A stretch of DNA of 64,000 bases, taken from contig CAVQBK010000003.1 of NCBI GenBank assembly GCA_963710755.1, positions 896,001 through 960,000 on the forward strand. Direction: 5' to 3'. The translations under genes were made by a program, and so were the position numbers. The notes below the pieces were generated by a model, which made no database searches, had not been told where the DNA came from, and saw nothing but the letters and a program-made list of their open reading frames with translations. Shown here piece by piece: positions 43,300 to 56,526 of this stretch; within the stretch, counting starts at the first letter, position 1; every line of letters begins with the position of its first letter. This DNA comes from an uncultured bacterium. Lineage in GTDB: Bacteria > Oederibacteriota > JAAXVQ01 > JAUVAV01.

Positions 43300-44937
43300 A
43301 TGGTAAAAGGAAAACCCATTAGACGCACCCGGCCAATGTTGACACCATTGGCTTTGCAAGAACGGGAAATGATTATATCTGCTGATGATGAACTGACACG
43401 AATTGCTTTTTTAGAAAATGGGCGGTTGGCGGAATATTATGCCGAACGCCATGTGGAACGCACGGTGGTCGGCAATATCTACAAAGGCGTAGTCACGGCT
43501 GTGCTGCCTGGCCTGCAAGCTGCTTTTATTGATATGGGACTGGAGAAGAGCGGATTTTTGCATGCCCGCGATGTGCTTACGGGCACTATGACCATTGAGG
43601 ATTATATCCAGGCCAAGCAGGCCAGCAAAAATGAAGAAACCTTGAGCGCCGAGGAAGCTGTCCAACAGGAAACCAGACAGGGGAAAGGTCTTAGTAGCAG
43701 CGGCCGGGGTGGGAAAGTCCTGATACAAAATGTGCTCAAAAAAGGCGACGAACTCCTGGTGCAAATTGAGAAAGAACCGATTTCCACCAAAGGGCCGCGT
43801 ATTACCGGGCAAATCTCCCTGCCTTCACGTCTGGTGGTGCTTATTCCCCAAGCCGAGCATGTGGGGGTCTCTCATCGCATTGCCGATGAGAGTGAACGAA
43901 CCCGCTTAAAAAAGATCCTGGATACCTTGGTGCCCAAGGATTTTGGGGTTATTGCCCGCACCTCCGCCGTGGGCGCCACGGAAAATGATCTTAAATCAGA
44001 AATTAATTATTTGCTCAAGCTTTGGAAAAAAATCAAAGCCAAGGAAAAAAAAGTACGTGCCCCGGCGGTGATCCATGCAGAAGAAGGCTTGCTGCAGCGA
44101 GTGGCGCGGGACATGCTCAGTAAGGAAGACAATCGCATTATCATCGACGCCGGGGCGGATAACCGCAAGTTAAAACAATCGCTGGGCTTCATGCTGTCGT
44201 CCATTAAACCCAATATTGAACTCTACAAAGGCGATCAGCCCATATTTGAGGTGCTCAATCTGGAGGCAGAGATTGAAAAAGCCCTGCGCCCCAAGGTGTG
44301 GCTGAAATGCGGCGGCTATCTGGTTATTGAAGAAACGGAAGCTTTGGTGGTGGTGGATGTCAACACCGGCCGCAATGTAGGCAAAGGTCATCAGGACGAA
44401 ACCATTTTCAAAACCAATATGGAAGCAGCCGAGGAGATTGGACGGCAACTGCGTTTGCGTGATCTGGGCGGCATCATTGTCCTCGATTTTATTGACATGC
44501 GTCATGCTGATCAAAAAGAACGGCTCTTTAAAACCTTGTCCAAAATATTAACCCGTGACCGGGCCAAGACCAGCATCCGGCGGTTGACAGATCTAGGGTT
44601 GATTGAGATGACGCGCAAGCGGGTGAGAAGCAGCTTGCTTAGAACCTTGTGCGATCCCTGCCCGCTTTGCCAGGGACGGGGCTGGATCAGCTCCAAGGAA
44701 ACGGTGCGGATGAAATTAAAACGGGCCATGGAACGAGCCCGCCGGCTTACAGATGAAGCTGCCTTTCAGCTGGAGGTTTCGCCCCATTGGCGCTACCATA
44801 TCGGGGAAGAAGCCCTGTTGGAACAAGGCAGGAAACAAAAAATCAAGTTGAGTGTGGCTACCAAAAGTGACCTTAGGAGTGAAGAATTCCGCCTGCTTTC
44901 CACGGCCACGGGCTTGGTAATTGTGGGGAACGATTAG
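43300..44937 (+). CDS. rng: Ribonuclease E/G family (RNase G-like)
   Basis: 'GNIYKG.V..VLPGLQAAFID', 'KEPISTKGPR', 'DVNTG', 'RLRDLGGII.LDFIDM', 'CP.C.G.G'. Confidence 0.93.
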   Translation: MVKGKPIRRTRPMLTPLALQEREMIISADDELTRIAFLENGRLAEYYAERHVERTVVGNIYKGVVTAVLPGLQAAFIDMGLEKSGFLHARDVLTGTMTIEDYIQAKQASKNEETLSAEEAVQQETRQGKGLSSSGRGGKVLIQNVLKKGDELLVQIEKEPISTKGPRITGQISLPSRLVVLIPQAEHVGVSHRIADESERTRLKKILDTLVPKDFGVIARTSAVGATENDLKSEINYLLKLWKKIKAKEKKVRAPAVIHAEEGLLQRVARDMLSKEDNRIIIDAGADNRKLKQSLGFMLSSIKPNIELYKGDQPIFEVLNLEAEIEKALRPKVWLKCGGYLVIEETEALVVVDVNTGRNVGKGHQDETIFKTNMEAAEEIGRQLRLRDLGGIIVLDFIDMRHADQKERLFKTLSKILTRDRAKTSIRRLTDLGLIEMTRKRVRSSLLRTLCDPCPLCQGRGWISSKETVRMKLKRAMERARRLTDEAAFQLEVSPHWRYHIGEEALLEQGRKQKIKLSVATKSDLRSEEFRLLSTATGLVIVGND

Positions 44938-45033: not shown

Positions 45034-45759
45034 ATGTTTGAAAACATCAAAGCTATTTTTGAAAAAGATCCGGCCGCACGCAACCTGGTGGAAGTCATTT
45101 TTTGTTATCCCGGCTTGCATGCCCTTTGGTTGCATCGTTGCAGTCATTTTTTATGGGAAATCAAACTAAAAACCCTGGCCCGCATGCTGTCCAACTTTGG
45201 CCGGTTTCTCACGGCCGTGGAGATCCATCCGGCGGCTAAAATCGGCAAGAGTGTGGTTATTGATCATGGTTTTGGCGTGGTCATCGGTGAAACCGCGGAA
45301 GTGGGGGACCGGGTGTTGATTTATCAGGGCGTGACCCTGGGCGGGACGTCCCTGGAAAAAGTGAAACGCCATCCTACCATTGAGTCCGATGTGGTCATCG
45401 GTGCCGGAGCCAAAGTGCTCGGTAATTTACGGGTGGGCATGGGCGCCAAGATCGGCACCATGGCCGTGGTGGTACGCGATGTGCCGGCAGGGTGCACGGT
45501 GGTGGGCAATCCGGGTAAAGTGGTGCGCTTGGCTTCGGGCGAACGTCCGCCATCTCCCTTGGATCATAATAAACTGCCTGATCCGGTGGCCGATGTGGTG
45601 CACCATTTAGATAACCGAATTAACGCGCTGACCAAATTAATGGAAGAAAAAGGATGTTTTACATCGGAAGAGTTTGAACGGCGCCACATGGCCGAAGAAG
45701 AAGTGTATGTTAATTCTTTCCTGGAGCAAGACGCTAACCACAGTTCGAAGAAAGAATAA
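45034..45759 (+). CDS. cysE: Serine O-acetyltransferase
   Basis: 'KDPAAR', 'YPGLHA', 'EIHPAA.IG...IDHG.GVVIGET', 'QGVTLGGT', 'KRHPT', 'HNKLPDP'. Confidence 0.95.
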   Translation: MFENIKAIFEKDPAARNLVEVIFCYPGLHALWLHRCSHFLWEIKLKTLARMLSNFGRFLTAVEIHPAAKIGKSVVIDHGFGVVIGETAEVGDRVLIYQGVTLGGTSLEKVKRHPTIESDVVIGAGAKVLGNLRVGMGAKIGTMAVVVRDVPAGCTVVGNPGKVVRLASGERPPSPLDHNKLPDPVADVVHHLDNRINALTKLMEEKGCFTSEEFERRHMAEEEVYVNSFLEQDANHSSKKE

Positions 45760-46118
45760 ACTCAGGGTTGTGTCTCACGCATTTAGTATATTATACCGCT
45801 TTTTTTGAGATCCTGCGCGCCATCAGCAAAGTTGCTTTTTCGGTCCCAAAAGCAGGCTCGCGGAACAAGCCATGGGCCCTCTCCTTGGCGCCCTACCACA
45901 AAAGCCTTGAAATCATGGATGAGCCACGTTGATAAAGCTGAGCAACTAATGGCTCAGCCTCCTAGTGCCTGACCGTCCCAAAATCAGAAATTCCATGGGA
46001 GAAACACACTTTTGCTTGCGCAGGTTCATGAATTCAGCTAAAGTTAAGTCCTTTGATGCGGTGATTTTTCCATGCCTGCCTTATGACTTTGACAAGCATT
46101 ACATTGGGGAGAACGACC

Positions 46119-46898
46119 ATGATCAACCACAACCGTCCATCATTCAGGCAACTGATCAATTGGAAGCTTTTTTTTGTGCTATGGGGTGCAGCCCTGGTCA
46201 GTGTGGCCGCGCTCTTTCCTTATTTATTAGCCTTGCAAAAGGATGCTTTGGCCCATATTCCCTTACCTTTACCCCTGTTGCTGGTCCTAACCCTGGCTCA
46301 AAACGGTATTATCTTTGCCCTGGTTATCTTTGGGGGCTTATGGTTCGCCAAACAAGTAGGGTTGGGCCTGCCCTTGTTGGAACAGGTCCTGCAAAAGCAG
46401 ATACCCAGTCGTACTTGGTGGCCGAGGTTGGTTGTAAGTTTGGTCCTGGGGCTGGCCACGGGCGTGGTGATTGCTATCCTCGATCGCTGGTTTCATCATT
46501 TGGGGGTCACTCTGTCCTTGGGTCGAGAATCCCATCTTGTATGGCAAGGCCTGTTGGCGTCCTTTTACGGGGGCATTGGTGAAGAGTTATTAATGCGCCT
46601 GGGGCTGATGTCTTGCTTTATCTGGTTGTTTGTGAAGGTGTTCCACCCGCGCGATAACCGGGCCGTTATTTGGTTGTCCATTTTCATCACAGCATTGTTA
46701 TTTGGCCTGGGACACTTACCGGTTACAGCGTCCCTTTTGACGTTGACCCCACTAGTTATCATTAGAGCTCTGGTGCTCAACGGTCTGGGAGGATTGGTTT
46801 TTGGGTGGTTGTTCTGGAAACAGGGGCTGGAAGCCGCCATGGTGGCCCATTTTTCTGCGGATATCATTTTACATGTCTTTGCACCGTTGCTGGGATAG
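46119..46898 (+). CDS. CPBP (CAAX/Abi) family intramembrane metalloprotease
   Basis: 'GGIGEELLMR', 'FGLGH', 'GLEAAMVAHF..D'. Confidence 0.9.
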   Translation: MINHNRPSFRQLINWKLFFVLWGAALVSVAALFPYLLALQKDALAHIPLPLPLLLVLTLAQNGIIFALVIFGGLWFAKQVGLGLPLLEQVLQKQIPSRTWWPRLVVSLVLGLATGVVIAILDRWFHHLGVTLSLGRESHLVWQGLLASFYGGIGEELLMRLGLMSCFIWLFVKVFHPRDNRAVIWLSIFITALLFGLGHLPVTASLLTLTPLVIIRALVLNGLGGLVFGWLFWKQGLEAAMVAHFSADIILHVFAPLLG

Positions 46899-47025
46899 TG
46901 ATCTTGATGGCGGACCAACATCCGGTTATAAAGAAAAAAGGTATTGTATTAATTTTTGGACAGGCAGATAATTACGCCGTGGGCCATTCAGTACAGGGTC
47001 CCGGTTACTTTGGGAGGTGAATGAT

Positions 47026-47448
47026 ATGACAATTACCAAAGAAGAATTAATTGCAGGGTTAAACAAGGATCTGGAATGGGAGTATGCCGCAGCCGTTCAG
47101 TATGTGCAGCATGCGGCCGTGATTACGGGTCCTCAGTATGAAGGTATCCAGAAAGAACTGATTATTCATTCCCAGGAAGAAATGGCCCATGCGGTTATGG
47201 TCTCGGAACAAATTGATTTTTTGGGCGGGGTCCCCACGGTGGATGTGGAAGCCCGGGAAGTCTCGGCTCAAGGCAAAACCATGTTGGAACAGGATTTAAA
47301 AGGTGAAGAAGATGCCATCAGCCGATATAAAACCCGTATTGCCCAGGCTGAAGCCTTAAAGGAATACGGCCTGCGCCGGGTATTGGAAGATATTCTTTTA
47401 CAGGAAGAAGAACATAAGCGCGACCTTCTGACCGCTTTGGAAAAATAA
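47026..47448 (+). CDS. Ferritin-like (bacterioferritin-related) protein
   Basis: Di-iron motifs 'LEWEY.A..QY', 'EEMAH', 'E..AI..Y', 'EEEH'. Confidence 0.85.
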   Translation: MTITKEELIAGLNKDLEWEYAAAVQYVQHAAVITGPQYEGIQKELIIHSQEEMAHAVMVSEQIDFLGGVPTVDVEAREVSAQGKTMLEQDLKGEEDAISRYKTRIAQAEALKEYGLRRVLEDILLQEEEHKRDLLTALEK

Positions 47449-47538: not shown

Positions 47539-47566
47539 TTGACAACCCTTTAAAAAACTGTAAAAT
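47539..47566 (+). promoter_or_regulatory. Sigma70-type promoter upstream of the spt fusion
   Basis: TTGACA (47539) - 16 bp - TAAAAT (47561). Confidence 0.6.
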
Positions 47567-47651
47567 TCTTGTTTATTCTTCCCGGAGGGCGTGGGCAGAG
47601 GCCTGCAGGGGCAAGGCCTATATGGCCATGATCTTGATCAGCTCGGAAATC

Positions 47652-47687
47652 AACACCGGGCAGTAAGCTGCCCGGTGTTTTATATTT
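47652..47687 (+). terminator. Terminator-like hairpin within the spt leader
   Basis: Perfect 12-bp stem AACACCGGGCAG/CTGCCCGGTGTT, loop TAAG, followed by TTATATTT. Confidence 0.6.
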
Positions 47688-47712
47688 AAAACCAATCATA
47701 GAGGTGTATGCA

Positions 47713-50055
47713 ATGGATCTTTTCGATAAGGCTTTTGAGTTTAATCGCCCCCAAGAGGTGATGGACCTGGGCCTTTATCCCTATTTTCGAATGAACGAGA
47801 CCGCGGTGGATACGACCACCATCATGAATGGCCGCAAAACCGTGATGATCGGATCCAATAATTACCTGGGATTAACCGCGCATCCGGAAGTTAAGGAAGC
47901 GGCCATGAAAGCTGTGGAGAAATACGGTACCGGTTGTACGGGTTCGCGCTTCCTGAACGGTACCATTGATCTGCATGTGGAATTGGAAGAAAAGCTGGCC
48001 AAGTTTATGAAAAAAGAGGCTGCTTTGGTTTATACCACAGGTTTTACCACCAATCAGGGCGTAATCTCCACTTTGGTACAGCGGGGCGATGTGGTCATAT
48101 CAGACCGTACCAACCATGCGTCTATTCTGGACGGATGCCGTCTTTCCTACGGCAAACTGATTAAATTCCGTCATAATGATATGGAGGATCTGGAACGTAT
48201 TTTAAAAAGCCTGGAAGGCAAAGATGTGGGGAAATTGATTGTGGTCGATGGCGTATTTTCCATGGAAGGCGATCTGGCTGATCTCCACCATATTGTACCC
48301 TTGGCTAAAAAATACGGCGCCCGGCTTATGGTGGATGAAGCCCATGGCTTGGGAGTGCTGGGTAAACGGGGCCGTGGCACCTGTGAGGAATTGGGGGTGC
48401 TGGATCAGGTGGATCTAGTCATGGGCACCTTCTCTAAGTCTTTTGCCAGTCTGGGTGGTTTTGTGGTAGGGGAAAAGAAAGTCATCAGCTACCTCAAACA
48501 TACGTCACGAGCTTTTATCTTTCAAGCTGCACCGCCACCATCGGCTGTGGCGGCGGCCTTGAAGGCTCTGGAAATTCTGCAACGCGAGCCGGAACGGCTG
48601 ACTAAATTGAAAGAAAACGTGTCCTACATGCTCAAAGAGATCAAGGCTGCCGGGTTTAGAACCTGGCCGACCGAGTCGGCTATTATTCCCATCATTGTTG
48701 GCGATGATCTCAAAACCTTCCAATTTTCCAAAATGCTCGAGATGGAAGGCGTCTATGTTAATCCTGTAGTCTCGCCCGCCGTACCTGCGGGATTCTCGGC
48801 TTTGCGAACTTCCTATACTGCCAAACATTCCCGGGAAGAGCTGGATTTTGCCTTGGAAAAATTAAAAAAAGTCGGTAAAGCCTTGGGCCTGATTGGGCCC
48901 AATGCGCCGGGCGCACCTGTAGATGTGATCCCGGTCACCAGCAGCAGCAAGGATAAAGAAAAAAACAAACGGTTGCAAAAGCAATTCATCCAATTGCCCT
49001 GGACTATTTACAAGCAGGATCCTCATTGGGTGCCGCAGGTGATTTCCGATGCAGAACGCATTTTTGACAAAGAGGACAACATTTTTTATAAACACGGTGA
49101 TGCCCAAGCCTTTGTGGTTCGACGGGGTGACAAGGTGGTGGGGCGTATTGTGGCGGCTATTGATTATCGAGCCAATGACCAGCTCAAGGAAAAAGCAGGG
49201 TTTTTCGGATTCTTTGAGGTCGATCATGATGTTAATGCGGCCCAGGCCCTGCTTCAAGCAGCACGAGATTGGCTGACTGAGCGGCATATGACCGTAATGC
49301 GAGGGCCCATGCCCTTTTCGTCCTTCGACGGGCTGGGTTGCCTGGTAGAAGGCTTTGAGGCTGGGCCGGCCATTATGATGCCCTACAATCCGGCTTATTA
49401 CGCCGAGTTTTTTGAAAAATTCGGGTTGGAAAAAAAGCAGGATTTGTATGCCTACTGGATCGATGCGCGCAAGTCCTTGTCGGACCGCTTGGAAAAGCTG
49501 GCCATACGCACTGAGGAAAAAGAAGGGGTTAAAGTACGTCGTCTGCGGGCCAGTCGTTTTCGCAAGGAAATGGCCAATATTATGGACATCTTTAATGATG
49601 CCAACAGTCAGGACAAACAGTACATTCCCCTAAGCCACAATGACCTGACCTTTTTAATTGCCAAGTTGAAACCAGTGATAGAACCGGAATTGGTGCATTT
49701 CGTGGAAGTAGATAAAAAGCCGGTAGCCTTCTCCGTCATTCTGCCTGATTACAATCAGGTGCTTAAGAAGATCGACGGCAAGATCGGTGTCACCAACTGG
49801 CTCAAATCTATTTTCTATTCCAAGCAGATTAACAGCGTTCGTTTTGCCATGCTGGGTGTGCGTAAAGCTTATCGACGTCGCGGCTTGGAAACGCTCTTGT
49901 ATGTAGAATCTTTTAAAGCAGCCAAGGCCTTGGGCTACACAGGAGGGGAATTGTCCTGGGTACCTCAGGAAGACAAAGTAGTCTCCAAAACCATTGAAAA
50001 AAACGGCGGGCAGCATACCAAAACCTACCGGCTTTATGAAATTTCCATTGCCTGA
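47713..50055 (+). CDS. Serine palmitoyltransferase (AONS-class PLP enzyme) fused to a bacterial ceramide-synthase-like GNAT acyltransferase
   Basis: N-part 'YPYFR', 'GSNNYLGL', 'GSRFLNGT', 'NHASI.DG', 'DEAH', 'GTFSKS'; C-part 'FI.LPW.IY..DPHWVP', 'GRI.A.ID', 'GFFGFFE', 'RGP', 'G.LVEGF', 'MPYNP.YY', 'LGV...YRRRGL', 'ELSW', 'KTYRLYE'. Confidence 0.82.
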   Translation: MDLFDKAFEFNRPQEVMDLGLYPYFRMNETAVDTTTIMNGRKTVMIGSNNYLGLTAHPEVKEAAMKAVEKYGTGCTGSRFLNGTIDLHVELEEKLAKFMKKEAALVYTTGFTTNQGVISTLVQRGDVVISDRTNHASILDGCRLSYGKLIKFRHNDMEDLERILKSLEGKDVGKLIVVDGVFSMEGDLADLHHIVPLAKKYGARLMVDEAHGLGVLGKRGRGTCEELGVLDQVDLVMGTFSKSFASLGGFVVGEKKVISYLKHTSRAFIFQAAPPPSAVAAALKALEILQREPERLTKLKENVSYMLKEIKAAGFRTWPTESAIIPIIVGDDLKTFQFSKMLEMEGVYVNPVVSPAVPAGFSALRTSYTAKHSREELDFALEKLKKVGKALGLIGPNAPGAPVDVIPVTSSSKDKEKNKRLQKQFIQLPWTIYKQDPHWVPQVISDAERIFDKEDNIFYKHGDAQAFVVRRGDKVVGRIVAAIDYRANDQLKEKAGFFGFFEVDHDVNAAQALLQAARDWLTERHMTVMRGPMPFSSFDGLGCLVEGFEAGPAIMMPYNPAYYAEFFEKFGLEKKQDLYAYWIDARKSLSDRLEKLAIRTEEKEGVKVRRLRASRFRKEMANIMDIFNDANSQDKQYIPLSHNDLTFLIAKLKPVIEPELVHFVEVDKKPVAFSVILPDYNQVLKKIDGKIGVTNWLKSIFYSKQINSVRFAMLGVRKAYRRRGLETLLYVESFKAAKALGYTGGELSWVPQEDKVVSKTIEKNGGQHTKTYRLYEISIA

Positions 50056-50267: not shown

Positions 50268-50957
50268 ATGAAAATCGTTGGCCTGGCCGCTTCGCCGCGG
50301 CGACAGGGTAATACGCACCGGCTTTTGGCGTACTTTCTTGACAGCTGCAGCCGGCTGGGAGCACAAACTACATTTTACAGCACCTGTGACTATCGCGTGG
50401 ACTTTTGCCGGGCCTGCGAGCAGTGCATGCGTCGCGGCGACTGCCCGGTGCCAGATGATTACCTGCCCCTGCTACCCGCGATTATGGAAGCCGATGCCTT
50501 GGTGTTGGCCACCCCCAATTATGCCTTTGACTGGTCCGGTCAACTCAAAACGGTTATTGATCGCAGCCATGCTTTTCTTTATTATACCCAGGCCTTAAAG
50601 GGCAAGTACGGTGTGGGTATTTGCGTGGCCGGCCATCCGGCCATGAGCAAAGCCATTGCCAAGCGGTGCGGCCAAGCGGTCTGGTTATGCGGAGGGGCCT
50701 ATGTAGGCGCCTTGACCGGTATTTCCAAACACCGTGATAAAAAAGGATTTATCCACGAAAAAAAAGTCTATGCCCAAGCAGATAAAATAGCCCAACGCCT
50801 GGTTCATGCCATTCAAACTCACCGGCCCTATGGCCTCCAACAATGGTTGCGTGAAACCTTCATTGTTTCCAAATTAAAAAAAATATTTACCCGACGGCAA
50901 CAGGAATTTCCTTATGTCTATCAGCGTTTGTGCCAAAGCGTGAAGTACCAGGATTAA
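50268..50957 (+). CDS. Flavodoxin family / iron-sulfur flavoprotein (NADPH-dependent FMN reductase-like)
   Basis: 'SPRR.GNT', Cx2Cx2Cx5C 'CRACEQCMRRGDC', 'TPNY', 'LK..IDR'. Confidence 0.85.
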   Translation: MKIVGLAASPRRQGNTHRLLAYFLDSCSRLGAQTTFYSTCDYRVDFCRACEQCMRRGDCPVPDDYLPLLPAIMEADALVLATPNYAFDWSGQLKTVIDRSHAFLYYTQALKGKYGVGICVAGHPAMSKAIAKRCGQAVWLCGGAYVGALTGISKHRDKKGFIHEKKVYAQADKIAQRLVHAIQTHRPYGLQQWLRETFIVSKLKKIFTRRQQEFPYVYQRLCQSVKYQD

Positions 50958-51088
50958 CCTGGTGCCCAGGAGAAGCGCCTGGGGAAGTTATTTTTTCCTG
51001 GCCAATCGGGAAATAGCTTTGTAAAGTGAATCTGATTTAAGCGGCCTTGTCAGGAGAGACACCAGCAACCATCGGGAGGAAAAAAACC

Positions 51089-51955
51089 ATGAACATCCGG
51101 CTATCTGTAGCAGGGCTTTTTTTACTGGCTTTTTTCGGCGGACTTTCAGTAGTACAAGGGGAAGAATCGCAAACCAATGGGTCTGGTCCCTGGGATCGGG
51201 AATTGATTATTCAGATTAACCTGGCGCAAAACAGTTTTGATAACTGGGTGAGCGGCGGCGACAATGCCCTGACCTGGCAAGGGCTGATAAGAGGTCATCT
51301 CAATTACAACCAAGACGCTTGGAGCTGGAAGCAGCGTACTCGGCTTGTATACGGTCAAACCCAGGTGAACAATGACGCTGTGAAAAAAAACGGCGATGAA
51401 ATCATGGTGGAGGAAATGGGAACTTACCGCTTGAAATCTTGGCTGACGCCCTTTATGGCGGTCAAATGGCAAACTCAATTTACGGAAGGCTACGATTACA
51501 GCCAGACACCGGCCGTGGCCGTCTCGAATTTTATGGATCCCGGGTATCTGACGGAAAGCATTGGACTCAGCTATGAAATAAAAAAAGTTTTTTCCACCCG
51601 CCTGGGTTTTGCAGCCAAGCAAACCTTTGCCAACCAATTTGCCGCTCTATATAGTGACCGCAAAGACACCACTCAGGTGGAACAGGTAAAAAATGACTTG
51701 GGTATGGAATCCGTGACCACCGTAGCCTGGCAACTCGACGATCACACGCTGTTGACCTCGGGTCTGACTTTGTTTTCATCGCTGGATGCCATTGACCGCA
51801 CTGATGTGAATTGGGAAAATCAACTGGTGGCTCAACTCAACAGTTTTTTGAATGTCAATTTCAGTGTCGATCTGGTCTATGACCATGATATCTCCGCCAA
51901 ACGTCAGCTCAAGGAAATTTTGGGCCTGGGCCTAACCTATACCCTGATTAAGTAG
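51089..51955 (+). CDS. DUF3078 family outer-membrane protein
   Basis: Signal peptide; 'Q.SFDNW..GG.N', 'TQF..GY', 'F..PGY'; C-terminal 'YD.D.S..RQLKE.LGLGL.Y'. Confidence 0.8.
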   Translation: MNIRLSVAGLFLLAFFGGLSVVQGEESQTNGSGPWDRELIIQINLAQNSFDNWVSGGDNALTWQGLIRGHLNYNQDAWSWKQRTRLVYGQTQVNNDAVKKNGDEIMVEEMGTYRLKSWLTPFMAVKWQTQFTEGYDYSQTPAVAVSNFMDPGYLTESIGLSYEIKKVFSTRLGFAAKQTFANQFAALYSDRKDTTQVEQVKNDLGMESVTTVAWQLDDHTLLTSGLTLFSSLDAIDRTDVNWENQLVAQLNSFLNVNFSVDLVYDHDISAKRQLKEILGLGLTYTLIK

Positions 51956-51968
51956 TTTTTTTTAAAAG

Positions 51969-52997
51969 CTAAGGCAGACGCTGGGAGCCGTGGAGATGTT
52001 GAAGGACCTCCTGATAACGGCGATGCAAGGATTGGTAGCGTTGAGCCTCGGCCGGGAAATGTTCCTGATAAATAGCCAAGGCCCGGCGGAACAAGCTGGC
52101 CGCCTCGGACCATTGGTTCTGGCTGGAAAAAATAGAACCCAAGAGCTCCATATCCTGAGCCACCCGGGGATGCAATTTACCGCGGTAGTCCTGGTCAAAG
52201 GTGAGCAATTGTTCTGCAAGTGGCCGGGCTTGCTGGAAACGCCGATCTTGCACATAGAGACTTACCAGATTAAACAGAGACTGGCTGTAATTCTCAACGT
52301 TCATTATGGGCGCGGCTACACTGAGTAATTGAAAGCGCCGGGTGGCCAGGGCGATGGCCTCCTTGAGACGGTTTTGGCGACGGTAGATATTTTCCAAACT
52401 TAAAAGATAACTGTTTAACTCAGGATGATTTGGACCCAACCGTTTTTCCTGCTCCTGCAGCAGGGTTTGGTATAATGACTCAGCCTGTTTATCTTTGTTC
52501 TGAGCTTCATAAATAACGGCCAAGTTAGACATGACCTCCAGCAGTAACGGATGGTGGGCCGGAAACTGGGCGGTAATTATGCTCAAGCCCCGCTGGCCAT
52601 AGGCCTCAGCCTTGCCATAATGGCCTTCATAACGAAGCAATTCGGACAGTCGCAGACACAATAAGCCCACTTGGGCATGCGTGGGGCCAAGGCGCATTTC
52701 TTCAGCTGTCAGCATCTGATAGAGCACCGCTTCTGCCTGCGGGTATTGTCCGGTAATGGAGTAAAGAAAAACCAGATTATTCATGGCCAAGTCCACATAA
52801 GCCTGGTCCTCGGCAAACAGGGTTCGGGCCAGGTCCAGGGATTGCCTGGCCAGGGCAATGGATTGCTGGTAATGGCCCTCGTGAAAGGCTTTGGCTGTGT
52901 CGCGGTTTATTTTATTCCATTGCTCAAAGGGGGTGCAACCAACCATGATCATGGTTAAAGTCAGAATTAATGCTGGAAATAACCTGATTAAGCGCAT
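51969..52997 (-). CDS. Tetratricopeptide-repeat lipoprotein
   Basis: Lipobox 'MVGC'; kinesin-light-chain-like TPR repeats 'NNL..LY...G.Y..AE', 'LGP.HP'. Confidence 0.85.
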   Translation of the reverse strand: MRLIRLFPALILTLTMIMVGCTPFEQWNKINRDTAKAFHEGHYQQSIALARQSLDLARTLFAEDQAYVDLAMNNLVFLYSITGQYPQAEAVLYQMLTAEEMRLGPTHAQVGLLCLRLSELLRYEGHYGKAEAYGQRGLSIITAQFPAHHPLLLEVMSNLAVIYEAQNKDKQAESLYQTLLQEQEKRLGPNHPELNSYLLSLENIYRRQNRLKEAIALATRRFQLLSVAAPIMNVENYSQSLFNLVSLYVQDRRFQQARPLAEQLLTFDQDYRGKLHPRVAQDMELLGSIFSSQNQWSEAASLFRRALAIYQEHFPAEAQRYQSLHRRYQEVLQHLHGSQRLP

Positions 52998-53150
52998 GCC
53001 TGCTCCTGGACGGAAAACTTGGCCCCTTCAATTAGACGCTGAGCATCTGTATTCCTAGGGTCGGCCATAACCCGGTCTTGAGTTAAGCTTTTGGGATTAA
53101 GGAAAATTAAAGAAAATTAAAGAAAAAGGTCAATGACGCTCATAAAATAC

Positions 53151-53179
53151 TTGACTAAAAACCCGGCCTTGAGTATATT
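53151..53179 (+). promoter_or_regulatory. Sigma70-type promoter for rplU-rpmA
   Basis: TTGACT - 17 bp - TATATT. Confidence 0.6.
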
Positions 53180-53229
53180 ACTGTCTCTTTTGTCAGGAAC
53201 GGTCGTCCCGTAAGCGGAGGTAGAACATT

Positions 53230-53544
53230 ATGTACGCTGTTATTGAAACCGGTGGAAAACAGTATAAAGTCGATAAAGGCCAGATGATCCAGGTAGAACG
53301 CCTGGACGCTGAGGTCGGTAAGACTGTGGAATTGGAGCGGGTGCTGCTGCTGCATGACGGCGAAGCAGTTACCGTCGGCCGTCCCGTGGTGGAGGGCGCC
53401 AAAGTAGTGGCGCAAGTCATCCGCCAAGGACGGGCTAAAAAAGTCTTGAGTTATAAATATCTGCCGCGTAAACATTCCGCCACCATTCGCGGTCATCGTC
53501 AATATTACACCCAGTTAAAAATTATGGATGTGGTGAAAGGTTAA
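53230..53544 (+). CDS. rplU: 50S ribosomal protein L21
   Basis: 'MYAVIETGGKQYKV', 'GHRQ.YT'. Confidence 0.98.
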   Translation: MYAVIETGGKQYKVDKGQMIQVERLDAEVGKTVELERVLLLHDGEAVTVGRPVVEGAKVVAQVIRQGRAKKVLSYKYLPRKHSATIRGHRQYYTQLKIMDVVKG

Positions 53545-53559
53545 CAGGAGGATAAATCC

Positions 53560-53832
53560 ATGGCTCATAAAAAAGGGCAAGGTTCATCATCAAACGGTCG
53601 CGATTCTGTCGGCCGCAGATTGGGATGCAAACATTTTTCCGGTGAAGTGGTCAAAGCCGGAAGCATTCTGGTGCGTCAACGGGGCACTAAATTCAGACCA
53701 GGTAAAAACGTAGGTATCGGTCGTGATGACACTCTGTTTGCCAAAGTGAATGGCGTGGTGCTTTTTGAAGGCACTGATCATGGCCGGCGCTTTATCTCCG
53801 TGGTGGTACCTGAAGCCAGCACGGCCCAATAA
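53560..53832 (+). CDS. rpmA: 50S ribosomal protein L27
   Basis: '[19 protein letters not shown]', 'ILVRQRGT', 'G.GRDDTLFA'. Confidence 0.98.
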
Positions 53833-53850
53833 GGTTACATGTCTGCTTAT

Positions 53851-53884
53851 GCCCTAAGGTCATTGACCTTAGGGCTTTTTTTTT
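53851..53884 (+). terminator. Rho-independent terminator after rpmA
   Basis: GCCCTAAGGTC-ATT-GACCTTAGGGC followed by T9. Confidence 0.85.
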
Positions 53885-54022
53885 ACCGTTAAAATCATGG
53901 TTAATCCGAAATCCAATCGGGAGATATCGGTAACCCTTTCCTTTTCTGGGAAAGGGTTACCTCAGTACGCTGCACTTGAGTACGGCGTACTTTATTAGGC
54001 AAAGAAAGAGGCGTTGGGCACA

Positions 54023-55303
54023 ATGCATAAAACGATGTTTATAGACCGCGCGGTTATCACCGTAGTGGCCGGTAAAGGCGGCGACGGGTCCTCTCACTTT
54101 CACCGGGAAAAATTCGTGCCTTTGGGGGGCCCCGACGGTGGTGACGGTGGCAAAGGCGGGGATATTATATTCCAAGCCGAGTCGGGATTGAAAACCTTGG
54201 TGGATTTTTCCTTTAAGCGCAGCTTTGAGGCGGAGCCGGGCCGTCCCGGGCGGGGCCGAAAAATGTACGGCCGCCACGGCAAGGACTGCCTGATTAAAGT
54301 GCCGCAAGGAACCCTGGTCTTTACCCGCGACGGCGAGCAGGTGGCGGATTTAAGCACAGCTCATGAGCAAGTGATTGTGGCCAAAGGCGGTCGTGGCGGG
54401 CGGGGTAACGTGCATTTTGCCACGGCCCTTAAGCGTGCGCCCAAACTGGCGGAAAAAGGCGAGCCGGGCGAAGAAAAAGAGTTGATTTTGGAACTCAAGC
54501 TGCTTGCGGATGTGGGGCTGGTGGGCCTGCCCAATGCCGGCAAATCCACCTTGCTTAAAGCTGTTTCTGCCGCCAATCCCAAAATCGCCGATTATCCTTT
54601 TACCACCTTAACGCCTAATTTGGGACGGGTACGCCTGGATGAAGGTGCCAGCTTTGTCATCGTGGATATTCCCGGACTGATTGAAGGCGCCAGCCAGGGT
54701 CTTGGTTTGGGCCATGAGTTCCTTCGCCATATTGAGCGTAATCGTCTTTTAATCCATGTGGTGGATGTGGGGTTCCCGGAAGTCCATCCCATCGAGGATT
54801 TTGAGGTACTCACTCAAGAACTGGCCGCCTATAATAAGGCCCTGCTAAAACGGCCACAACTGGTGGCCTTAAACAAAGTAGATTTGGTTCAAGATCCGCA
54901 GCTATTACCGGAATTGATGGCCTATTTTAAAAAGAAAAAACTGCAGGTCTTTCCCATCTCGGCAGCCACTAACCAGGGTCTGGACCAACTTATGCAAGCT
55001 GCTAATGAACTGCTTAAGACCATTCCCCAGGAGGCCTTGTTGCCGCCTGTTCACCATGCTGCGGTCAAGGCTCCGGCAGCACGCTTCATCATTATTCCCC
55101 TGGGACCGGGCGCATGGGAAGTCAAGGGCAAGGAAGTGGAAAAATGGGTGGCCATGACGGATTTTGACAATGAAGAAGCGGTTAAAAAATTGAAGGACAT
55201 TTTTGACCGCATTGGCCTTACCCAGGGGTTTCAGGAACACCAGTTCCACAACGGTGATACCATCAAAGTAGGTCATGAAGAATTCATTTATCAGGAAGAT
55301 TAA
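54023..55303 (+). CDS. obgE: GTPase ObgE/CgtA with C-terminal DUF1967 domain
   Basis: 'FIDRA.I...AGKGGDG', 'GGPDGGDGG.GG', 'GLPNAGKST', 'YPFTTL.PNLG', 'DIPGL', 'NKVD'. Confidence 0.97.
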   Translation: MHKTMFIDRAVITVVAGKGGDGSSHFHREKFVPLGGPDGGDGGKGGDIIFQAESGLKTLVDFSFKRSFEAEPGRPGRGRKMYGRHGKDCLIKVPQGTLVFTRDGEQVADLSTAHEQVIVAKGGRGGRGNVHFATALKRAPKLAEKGEPGEEKELILELKLLADVGLVGLPNAGKSTLLKAVSAANPKIADYPFTTLTPNLGRVRLDEGASFVIVDIPGLIEGASQGLGLGHEFLRHIERNRLLIHVVDVGFPEVHPIEDFEVLTQELAAYNKALLKRPQLVALNKVDLVQDPQLLPELMAYFKKKKLQVFPISAATNQGLDQLMQAANELLKTIPQEALLPPVHHAAVKAPAARFIIIPLGPGAWEVKGKEVEKWVAMTDFDNEEAVKKLKDIFDRIGLTQGFQEHQFHNGDTIKVGHEEFIYQED

Positions 55304-55392
55304 ACTCTGTGGCCGGCGGTCCGGAAGCGTGTTAATTCACTGGCTTAAGCCCGGCGCTCATACTATAATTTTTGAAAAACCTCAGGATGGCC

Positions 55393-56526
55393 ATGGATAA
55401 GCGCTATTTGTTAAAAAAATGCAAACGTATCGTCGTTAAAATCGGATCTGCCCTCTTGACTGATGAGCAGGGGTTGCTCAAAACCCGGTTCATGGGCAAA
55501 CTGGCCAAGGAAATCAACTTGCTCAGGAGTCAAGGCCGTGAAGTGATTCTGGTCAGTTCCGGTGCCATTGCCGCGGGCTTGCAGGTCATGAAGAAACCGC
55601 GCCGTCTGGCCACTATTCCCGCCAAACAAGCCATGGCCGCCATTGGTCAACCAAGGTTAATGCAAGCCTACAGCCGTGCCTTTGGGCGCCAGGGGCTGCA
55701 CGTGGCACAGGTACTGCTGACCTCGGAAGACATCCATCACCGGGAACGCTACGCCCATGCCCGCAATGCGCTCTTGGAAATATTGAAGCAAAAGGTAATT
55801 CCCATCTTTAATGAAAACGACACGGTGGCAGTCAGTGAGATCAAATTCGGCAATAATGATATTCTCTCCGCCCATATTACCAACTTGGCGGAAGCAGATG
55901 CACTGGTGATCCTGACCGATGTGGATGGGCTCTATACTCATAATCCTCGCCTTAATCCTCAGGCCCGTCTGGTTGGGGAAGTGGAAAAAATAGACGCCTC
56001 CATTGTTGCCATGGCCTCCGGCCATGGCAACAGCTTGGGCACGGGCGGTATGACCTCTAAACTTAAAGCTGCCGAGAATGTGGTGGGCTTTGGCGAAGAA
56101 ATGATCATTGCCAATGGCCGGCTACCGCTGGTGTTACCCCGGATTATGACCGGTGAGCCCATTGGTACTATATTTTATCCTCGCGGCGATAAGTTGGCAG
56201 CCCGTAAAAGCTGGATTGCCTTTGCCCTCAAAGCCAGAGGCAGCCTGCAATTGGACCAGGGTGCCTGGCAAGCCATCAAAAATCAAGGCAGGAGCCTTCT
56301 GCCTTCAGGCGTCAAAAGCGTAAGCGGTGCGTTCCGCCAAGGTGATTGTGTGGAACTCAAAGATCAGCAAGGCCGTGTCTTTGCCCGGGGTCTGATCAAT
56401 TATGATGCCCAGGCCGTGCAAGCTCTGCTGGGGGCTAAAACCTCGGAAATTGAGGACCGTCTTGGTTATAAAAATAGTGACGAGTTGATCCACCGTAATG
56501 ACCTGGTGGTGCTCAATTCAGATTAA
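55393..56526 (+). CDS. proB: Glutamate 5-kinase (with PUA domain)
   Basis: 'VVKIGS', 'VSSGA', 'A.GQ', 'NENDTV', 'GTGGM.SK', 'SLLP.G', 'IHR.DL'. Confidence 0.96.
   Translation: MDKRYLLKKCKRIVVKIGSALLTDEQGLLKTRFMGKLAKEINLLRSQGREVILVSSGAIAAGLQVMKKPRRLATIPAKQAMAAIGQPRLMQAYSRAFGRQGLHVAQVLLTSEDIHHRERYAHARNALLEILKQKVIPIFNENDTVAVSEIKFGNNDILSAHITNLAEADALVILTDVDGLYTHNPRLNPQARLVGEVEKIDASIVAMASGHGNSLGTGGMTSKLKAAENVVGFGEEMIIANGRLPLVLPRIMTGEPIGTIFYPRGDKLAARKSWIAFALKARGSLQLDQGAWQAIKNQGRSLLPSGVKSVSGAFRQGDCVELKDQQGRVFARGLINYDAQAVQALLGAKTSEIEDRLGYKNSDELIHRNDLVVLNSD

Follow-up and report, generated by a model that had tools for sequence, protein, structure and literature searches.

The window analysed here is a stretch of 64,000 nucleotides from the genome of an uncultured bacterium of the candidate phylum Oederibacteriota (assembly GCA_963710755.1, contig CAVQBK010000003.1, positions 896,001 to 960,000 of the forward strand; genome G000 in what follows). 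It carries a gene whose product joins a domain related to serine palmitoyltransferase (Spt) to a domain related to bacterial ceramide synthase (bCerS), referred to below as the fused spt-bcerS gene. The open reading frame (ORF) extends from 47704 to 50055 on the forward strand in the ORF listing and would encode 783 aa from a GTG start, while translation from the ATG at 47713 yields 780 residues with no internal stop. The ATG is favored as the start codon because a Shine-Dalgarno-like motif, AGAGGTG, is present at 47700-47706. Both points agree with a preliminary description of the locus, made from the sequence alone, which had proposed this start and a single unbroken frame of about 780 aa. 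All the motifs quoted in that description were retrieved in the translation, those of Spt (YPYFR, GSRFLNGT, HASI, DEAH and GTFSKS) as well as those of the C-terminal half (TIYKQDPHWVP, GRIVAA, GFFGFFE, RGP, MPYNPAYY, ELSW and KTYRLY). The gene and its parts are the following.

47713..50055, forward strand: fused spt-bcerS gene, 780 codons plus stop, uninterrupted ORF with single-frame orthologues in G024, G031, G032 and G019.
47713..48888, forward strand: Spt-like alpha-oxoamine synthase domain, residues 1-392 (PF00155, NF047600, PDB 3A2B).
48889..48918, forward strand: short Gly/Pro-rich linker, about residues 393-402, of variable length among fused proteins; in the model, residues 404-408 are already a strand of the C-domain.
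48919..50052, forward strand: tandem-GNAT N-acyltransferase domain of the bCerS (aca/YghO) type, residues ~403-780 (tblastn, AlphaFold (AF2) model, Foldseek).

The N-terminal domain displays the fold of the pyridoxal 5'-phosphate (PLP)-dependent alpha-oxoamine synthases (AONS), as indicated by a match to Pfam PF00155 (aminotransferase class I/II; residues 44-384, E 1e-63) and by a high-confidence model. Its best NCBIfam model is NF047600 (Spt-CFB, the Bacteroidota-type Spt) with 536.8 bits for a cut-off of 640, followed by betaproteobacterial Spt (417.9 bits), bioF (415.4) and Kbl (403.3). Two other models, NF047601 and NF047602, were considered as sphingolipid models and discarded, both being MscS channels. 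The closest solved relative is the Spt of Sphingobacterium multivorum (3A2B/8GUH; 414 bits over residues 5-389), with which the lysine of GTFSKS lines up (3A2B); the other PDB matches are BioF/KBL (330 bits), Sphingomonas Spt (289-294), Kbl (~273) and a cysteate-C-fatty acyltransferase (253). None of the residues H135, D208, H211, K242 (in GTFSKS) and R365 varies among 51 fused proteins; we take them to be the catalytic His, Asp and His, the Schiff-base Lys and the carboxylate-binding Arg. The only other AONS of the genome is a BioF encoded within a bioA-bioF-bioC-bioD cluster, and in a tree rooted on this protein the N-domain is nested in a clade bounded by the ceramide-cluster Spts of E. coli, Sphingomonas and Streptomyces. 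The NCBIfam scores, the PDB scores and the tree all agree with the initial assignment of this half to Spt and not to BioF or Kbl, and these comparisons support an AONS closest to the Bacteroidota-type Spt.

Serine specificity is not fixed by the sequence, because the score falls below the Spt equivalog cut-off, and the specificity of AONS enzymes is hard to infer from sequence. The domain might then accept glycine, alanine or cysteate and give rise to another N-acyl amino-ketone lipid, comparable to the capnine-type sulfonolipids, and the solved cysteate-C-fatty acyltransferase is indeed a clear relative. Such a specificity is judged improbable, however, as the Spt models and structures lead the other AONS classes by 80-120 bits and as the nearest unfused Spt relatives of the domain (53-60% identity) are found in CerR-Spt-bCerS clusters, some of them with PAP2 or lipid-kinase genes.

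With 3954 relatives at E<=1e-5, the C-terminal half falls into a large family made up of stand-alone proteins of ~370-390 aa. Together with the PF00155 match of the N-domain, these relatives place the two-domain composition well outside what chance would produce. Reference ceramide clusters were found by a tblastn search with this half against annotated plasmid records. With a query coverage of 97-99%, homologues were obtained in Streptomyces sp. NBC_01001 (36.9% identity, E 1e-68), in Sphingomonas parapaucimobilis (31.5%, E 2e-51) and in E. coli, where the protein is YghO (29.5%, E 1e-44). The Streptomyces match is part of an operon encoding an aminotransferase, a GNAT protein and an NAD-dependent epimerase. 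The Sphingomonas acyltransferase is located five genes past an NAD(P)H-binding protein, an acyl carrier protein (ACP) and Spt; yghO adjoins genes for a fatty acyl-AMP ligase (FAAL), an epimerase, an ACP, Spt and LptFG paralogues, and a Roseomonas match has a comparable context. According to the accessible part of PMC9386255, the aca genes CC_1154, yghO (ECD_02850), Swit_3908 and DRN02_007910 encode acyl-CoA N-acyltransferases needed to make dihydroceramide; the numbering used there agrees with where the Sphingomonas gene lies, and CCNA_01212 is given as the Caulobacter CerS in the available text of PMC10865984.

A sequence search of the PDB with the C-half returned nothing meaningful. Its AF2 model reached a mean predicted local distance difference test (pLDDT) of 92.8 and a predicted template modeling score (pTM) of 0.89, and the best Foldseek matches of this model are tandem-GNAT N-acyltransferases (5KF1, 2WPW, 7Q3A and MshD). 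The solved enzymes 5KF1 (Clostridium glucosamine N-acetyltransferase), 7Q3A (MAB_4324) and 2C27 (MshD) share the two-GNAT fold of the C-domain, the Foldseek comparisons with solved tandem GNATs giving E 4e-15 to 1e-11, TM scores of 0.6-0.7 and 10-16% identity; they differ from the C-domain family by their short acyl donors and their sugar or thiol acceptors. The GNAT-type bCerS family named in the preliminary description is borne out by full-length homology to the aca/yghO acyltransferases of three named clusters, and sequence comparison thus supports membership of the C-domain in the aca/YghO/bCerS family.

In the full-length model of the protein (pLDDT 86.6, pTM 0.70), residues 404-408 form a confident beta-strand, read as the N-terminal strand of the stand-alone bCerS homologues. 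Since this strand would already belong to the C-domain, the Gly/Pro-rich linker is limited to about residues 393-402, shorter than the 23 residues first proposed. Docking of the N-domain against the C-domain with an alignment built here scored 0.00 for a mark of 0.32, which says nothing on the interface. A stop or a frameshift between the domains, either of which the preliminary description regarded as fatal to its proposal, is not seen in the sequence at the junction. Of 99 genomes from the phylum, five (G000, G024, G031, G032 and G019) have a full-length single-frame copy and two (G023 and G020) show it as pieces at contig ends, for a total of 7 carriers; the two contig ends of G023 overlap across the linker. 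In two public runs, contigs of low depth reproduce the window sequence exactly at 48614-48935 and 48958-49180. The fusion is thereby confirmed as real and not as an assembly artefact. Compared with the same-genus genome G023, the ratio of non-synonymous to synonymous substitution rates (dN/dS) amounts to 0.024 in the N part of the gene and to 0.034 in the C part, at high dS values of 1.3-1.8, and both halves are under strong purifying selection.

An error of assembly or gene calling, or a decaying relic left behind by the loss of cerR, could be invoked on the grounds that no single contig across the junction is present among the contigs of the two public runs, which cover parts of the gene, that cerR is gone from this genome and that the leader of the gene carries a terminator-like insertion (both described below). 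Against this, four other genomes and 66 database proteins show the same single-frame fusion, the overlap of the G023 contig ends spans the linker, dN/dS remains at 0.02-0.03 inside a genus devoid of cerR, and the catalytic residues are invariant. This explanation can hardly be upheld.

The fusion is rare but recurrent. Among database proteins of 700 aa or more, 66 combine the two domains in one chain, 25 of them being 66-92% identical to the window protein and the other 41 being 39-44% identical; two of the 25 closest are labelled candidate division FCPU426 by NCBI. The survey of loci was carried out on the 80 best loci, with one genome per species. One of them is fused (L031), 36 display spt followed by a GNAT gene on the same strand, and Spt is alone in 42, mostly from Bacillota; only a distant weak GNAT is found in the last one. 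A CerR-like gene of the epimerase family adjoins Spt in 37 of 91 loci and, by Pfam scan, in 9 of 13 adjacent-pair loci. The adjacent spt-GNAT pairs are in frame, with the spt stop codon as sole separator, in 6 cases out of 37. One such pair, L026, comes from the same phylum and is sister to the fused clade of the window with 95% support. Three clades of fused proteins, each supported at 100%, are recovered whether the tree is built from the N-domain, from the C-domain or from both concatenated, and the approximately unbiased (AU) test rejects a single fused clade (log-likelihood difference of 293, p 2.9e-65), a p-value that is descriptive because the group was defined after the first trees had been inspected. 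The fusion arose at least three separate times from the common adjacent spt-bcerS pair, and each would have been born by loss of the spt stop codon.

The longer homologues of the C-domain (n=106) were examined for their partners. PF00155 is present in 26 of them and the other 80 list GNAT-type Pfam domains only, while an epimerase domain is found in none of the 106. The GNAT-only proteins are read as doubled bCerS-like units placed head to tail. They form a set of ~80 proteins of 650-870 aa (P0240-P0318), several of which are labelled Pirellulales, Thermoguttaceae or Planctomycetota. Because the Spt-bCerS fusion arose at least three times and bCerS-reductase fusions amount to 0 out of 106, the two enzymes would act back to back.

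No description of a natural Spt-bCerS fusion was found in the literature covered, which leaves out most subscription journals. The locus had been presented as the strongest candidate for a novel system in the window, which is too strong a statement, since the pathway is known and the fusion recurs in 7 of the 99 phylum genomes and in 66 database proteins. The novelty of the fused gene lies in how it arranges a known pathway, not in a new system. As a separate observation, genes of the PAP2 superfamily and a lipid kinase gene of the diacylglycerol-kinase/YegS type directly follow some of the spt-bcerS pairs, and could encode enzymes that add head groups or phosphorylate ceramide.

L052, 10303-11190: PAP2/lipid-kinase locus after an spt-bcerS pair.
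L054, 10574-11887: PAP2/lipid-kinase locus after an spt-bcerS pair.
L045, 10409-11341: PAP2/lipid-kinase locus after an spt-bcerS pair.

The neighbourhood of the fused gene is conserved in relatives, with one exception that bears directly on the pathway. An exact synteny is observed in G031, G019 and G032, where the order is RNase G, CysE-like, fused gene, (flavoprotein), tetratricopeptide repeat (TPR) protein on the opposite strand, CerR on the opposite strand, rplU, rpmA and obg. The window keeps this block, starting with RNase G at 43300, except for cerR.

45034..45759, forward strand: serine acetyltransferase-like gene (hexapeptide; CysE-like), upstream neighbour conserved in relatives.
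50268..50957, forward strand: FMN-reductase-family flavoprotein, directly downstream, conserved in family f1.
51969..52997, reverse strand: TPR protein, flanked in relatives by cerR on one side and the fused gene on the other.
52998..53229, no strand: empty cerR slot, a spacer of 232 nt where relatives hold a CerR orthologue of 326 aa.
53230-53544, forward strand: rplU, far flank of the block.
53560-53832, forward strand: rpmA, far flank of the block.
54014-55303, forward strand: obg, far flank of the block.

The CysE-like gene is 73-76% identical to its counterparts in G031, G019 and G032, where it directly adjoins the fused gene. The identity to these three genomes is 39-42% for the TPR protein and 58-73% for the syntenic rplU, rpmA and obg. 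The flavoprotein is 64-68% identical to the neighbours found in G031 and G032, the latter being a Pfam FMN_red protein; at E<=1e-6, nothing in the G019 locus (L112) matches it. It was rejected as a lipid-keto reductase, as it is missing from the G019 locus and as the NADPH-dependent FMN reductase family is unexpected for such a reduction. A putative gene named x185, beside the cerR of the relatives, was dismissed as an antisense shadow of rplU/rpmA.

CerR-like proteins encoded beside Spt share 30-42% identity with each other and 23-41% with the reductases of the Streptomyces, Sphingomonas and E. coli clusters. With one CerR-like query, orthologues were retrieved in G019, G031, G032 and G024 (35-37% identity, E 1e-61 to 5e-66), and cerR is located 2-3 kb from the fused gene in the first three. 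In the window, tblastn with the CerR of the relatives detected no remnant in the TPR-rplU spacer. Genome-wide searches of G000, whose completeness is 98%, and of G023 and G020 returned generic epimerase matches only (E 4e-12, 8e-22 and 3e-16) and no cerR orthologue. The missing neighbour pointed out in the preliminary description, which had also left open a CerR encoded elsewhere in the genome, is thus explained by a clean loss of cerR in the genus. The ACP stated there to be missing from the vicinity was likewise not found, either by tblastn or as a PP-binding domain on the contig (C3). More generally, a dedicated ACP or acyl-ACP synthetase was not detected at E<=1e-5 by tblastn with the ACP/FAAL proteins of E. 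coli, Sphingomonas and Roseomonas; neither is expected alongside a Bacteroidota-type Spt.

Several other features of the block were recorded. Between the CysE-like gene and the fused gene, the window carries extra genes (46083-47448) encoding a CPBP-type membrane protease-like protein and a ferritin-like protein, which are not present in G031, G019 and G032. Past the flavoprotein, another extra gene (51047-51955) encodes a protein of 302 aa that starts with a signal-peptide-like segment and matches no family. The ceramide reductase gene adjoins obg (and proB) both in the Sphingomonas record L015 (NZ_CP155753.1) and in the relatives of the window, the corresponding region of the window being 53230-56526; this might be a coincidence. 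The record NZ_CP155753.1 is labelled as a plasmid, yet it contains obgE, proB and lptFG and looks chromosome-like.

The leader of the fused gene also differs within the genus.

47539..47566, forward strand: promoter-like site, TTGACA-16 nt-TAAAAT, 11 of 12 matches to the consensus (consensus scan).
47575..47690, forward strand: insertion of ~110 nt in the 5' leader, missing from G023 at the same position.

The promoter-like site, of putative function, is identical base for base in G023. The insertion is present in a single copy in the genome and contains a GC-rich hairpin of 12 bp (47652-47679) followed by a U-rich tail, an arrangement that resembles a terminator. No family was detected by an Rfam scan of the leader; the fold energy is -50.7 kcal/mol (z -2.1). 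The insertion could be a transcription attenuator or the remnant of a small mobile element.

A candidate for the reduction step is encoded elsewhere on the same contig. At G000:C3:589394-592892 (L007 7392-10902), a gene for a classical short-chain dehydrogenase/reductase (SDR) is divergent from two tandem bCerS-like paralogues of 373 and 400 aa, which share 65% identity with each other and 34% with the fused C-domain. A few kb away (L007 15418-17677), PAAR-motif, VgrG-like (Phage_base_V) and peptidoglycan-binding genes form a type VI secretion-like remnant or cluster. The SDR (G000:C3:589394-590284) matches NF049977, the model of the 3-ketodihydrosphingosine reductase KdsR, end to end with 194.8 bits for a cut-off of 400, the next SDR of the genome scoring 98.6 bits on the same model; the generic model PRK06179 ties with 195.5 bits. 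Homologues of the SDR (31-46% identity) lie directly beside Spt in 27 of the 91 loci, all of the Bacillota class where Spt is alone, and of the 4 Spt-adjacent SDRs tested, 3 score best on the KdsR model. The loci of these Bacillota/Clostridia metagenome-assembled genomes, in which Spt is paired directly with a KdsR-like SDR and no bCerS homologue is present, represent a second recurrent type of cluster that differs from CerR-Spt-bCerS.

L032, L037, L038, L041, L086, L098 and 21 others: loci pairing Spt with a KdsR-like SDR.

Among the seven carriers of the fusion, three possess cerR only, three the SDR only (G000, G023 and G020) and one both. The SDR and its GNAT neighbours are also kept in five relatives without Spt (G025, G027-G030). 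The SDR was therefore rejected as an obligate partner of the fused enzyme, being absent from three complete fusion-carrying genomes and present in five without Spt, and the SDR/GNAT module may act on another amino lipid. In one of the relatives without Spt, the locus L118 (G029:C28, 2062-5686) encodes an unclassified AONS of the BioF/Kbl family (423 aa), a FabZ-like dehydratase, a 4'-phosphopantetheinyl transferase and an SDR. This set of genes is possibly a separate amino-lipid cluster feeding the SDR/GNAT module.

The distribution of the SDR bears on the order of the steps. According to the accessible part of PMC9386255, this order is argued, with reduction followed by acylation on one side (Olea-Ozuna 2021) and acylation followed by reduction on the other (Stankeviciute 2022); both orders are described as published in the available text of PMC10865984. 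The organism could follow the order of eukaryotes and Bacteroides, in which Spt would release 3-ketosphinganine, the KdsR-like SDR would reduce it to sphinganine and a bCerS-type domain, either the fused one or a paralogue, would acylate the product, so that the fusion would provide co-expression without channelling. The deletion of cerR in this genome, the presence of the SDR in all three carriers that lack cerR, its score on the KdsR model far above that of the next SDR, the position of its homologues beside Spt and the publication of both step orders (PMC10865984, in its accessible part) speak for such a route. On the other hand, the SDR remains far below the KdsR cut-off and ties with a generic oxidoreductase model, it is kept with its GNAT neighbours in the five relatives without Spt, and the counts rest on few carriers from related genomes. 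The independent origins of the Spt-bCerS fusion, together with 0 bCerS-reductase fusions out of 106, are in addition a better fit to consecutive Spt and bCerS steps. This order is on balance rather unlikely.

We consider it likely that the fused gene encodes a bifunctional synthase of the ceramide backbone, which would operate as follows. The PLP-dependent Spt domain would condense L-serine with a long-chain acyl thioester into 3-ketosphinganine. Since searches for a dedicated ACP or acyl-ACP synthetase found none, this thioester is probably acyl-CoA, the donor of the Bacteroidota-type Spt. The tandem-GNAT domain would then N-acylate 3-ketosphinganine into 3-keto-dihydroceramide, following the bacterial order of steps, or would acylate the reduced base if reduction came first. 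The fusion would guarantee the co-production of two consecutive enzymes in a 1:1 ratio as well as their proximity. We infer the substrates, the order of the steps and the candidate 3-keto reductase (the KdsR-like SDR), and channelling of the 3-keto intermediate, already suggested in the preliminary description, would be conceivable.

A number of observations weigh against a bifunctional ceramide-backbone synthase. The N-domain stays under the NCBI Spt equivalog cut-off (536.8 < 640). For the C-half, no NCBIfam family was matched even at E<=10 and the Pfam signal consists of a weak GNAT match only; the link to Caulobacter bCerS runs via E. coli YghO, Sphingomonas and the accessible part of PMC9386255. 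The full-length model, with its pTM of only 0.70, gave no defined inter-domain interface. The two bCerS-like paralogues are about equally similar to the reference ceramide-cluster proteins, and the fused copy is not singled out as the ceramide maker because they are similarly close to these references. Finally, the canonical third enzyme, CerR, a reductase of the NDUFA9/epimerase family, is absent from the genome, and the end product may differ from ordinary dihydroceramide for this reason. Displacement of CerR by the KdsR-like SDR is plausible as a hypothesis. A broader proposal is put forward tentatively: CerR was lost in this genus while the fused gene stayed under strong selection, and either a Bacteroides/Bacillota-type KdsR-like SDR, encoded beside the two bCerS-like paralogues, would have displaced CerR, which would result in a hybrid pathway, or 3-keto-dihydroceramide would itself be the finished membrane lipid.

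The Caulobacter crescentus pathway is taken here to consist of Spt (CCNA_01220), bCerS (CCNA_01212, presumably the same gene as CC_1154, to which the name bCerS was given later) and CerR (CCNA_01222). The same two enzyme families are found in the fused protein in the same order, and the three genes are together in the unfused relatives; unlike in Caulobacter, Spt and bCerS form one polypeptide here, no dedicated ACP or acyl-ACP synthetase was found and cerR is missing. The C-domain is a full-length homologue of YghO in the E. coli B-type island (LptFG paralogues, Spt, AcpR, epimerase, AasR, YghO) and of the acyltransferase of the Sphingomonas cluster (CerR-AcpR-Spt...aca). It differs from both by an identity of only ~30%, and the proteobacterial Spt, which depends on ACP according to the accessible part of PMC9386255, is a distant branch (39% identity). 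The Spt of Sphingobacterium multivorum (3A2B, 8GUH), the nearest solved relative of the N-domain, is itself a stand-alone soluble enzyme without an acyltransferase domain. With respect to the Bacteroides-type KdsR (BT_0972 in the available text of PMC10865984), the SDR of the genome matches the NF049977 model end to end, but its score is below the cut-off and its gene is unlinked to the fused gene and kept in relatives without Spt.

If the broader proposal is correct, then under either of its readings (displacement of CerR or 3-keto-dihydroceramide as the finished lipid) the repeated and exclusive Spt-bCerS fusion would constitute natural 'Rosetta-stone' evidence for N-acylation as the step right after condensation in bacteria. 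The three or more independent fusions would bring independent genomic support to the debate on the order of the steps. The fused enzyme would be a compact single protein for testing this order in vitro and a convenient one-gene tool for the production of ceramide backbones. The clean loss of cerR, together with the presence of a KdsR-like SDR, would amount to a small natural experiment on replacing the reduction or dispensing with it. For the organism itself, predicted sphingolipid synthesis would be extended to a little-known candidate phylum, whose members include close relatives labelled candidate division FCPU426.

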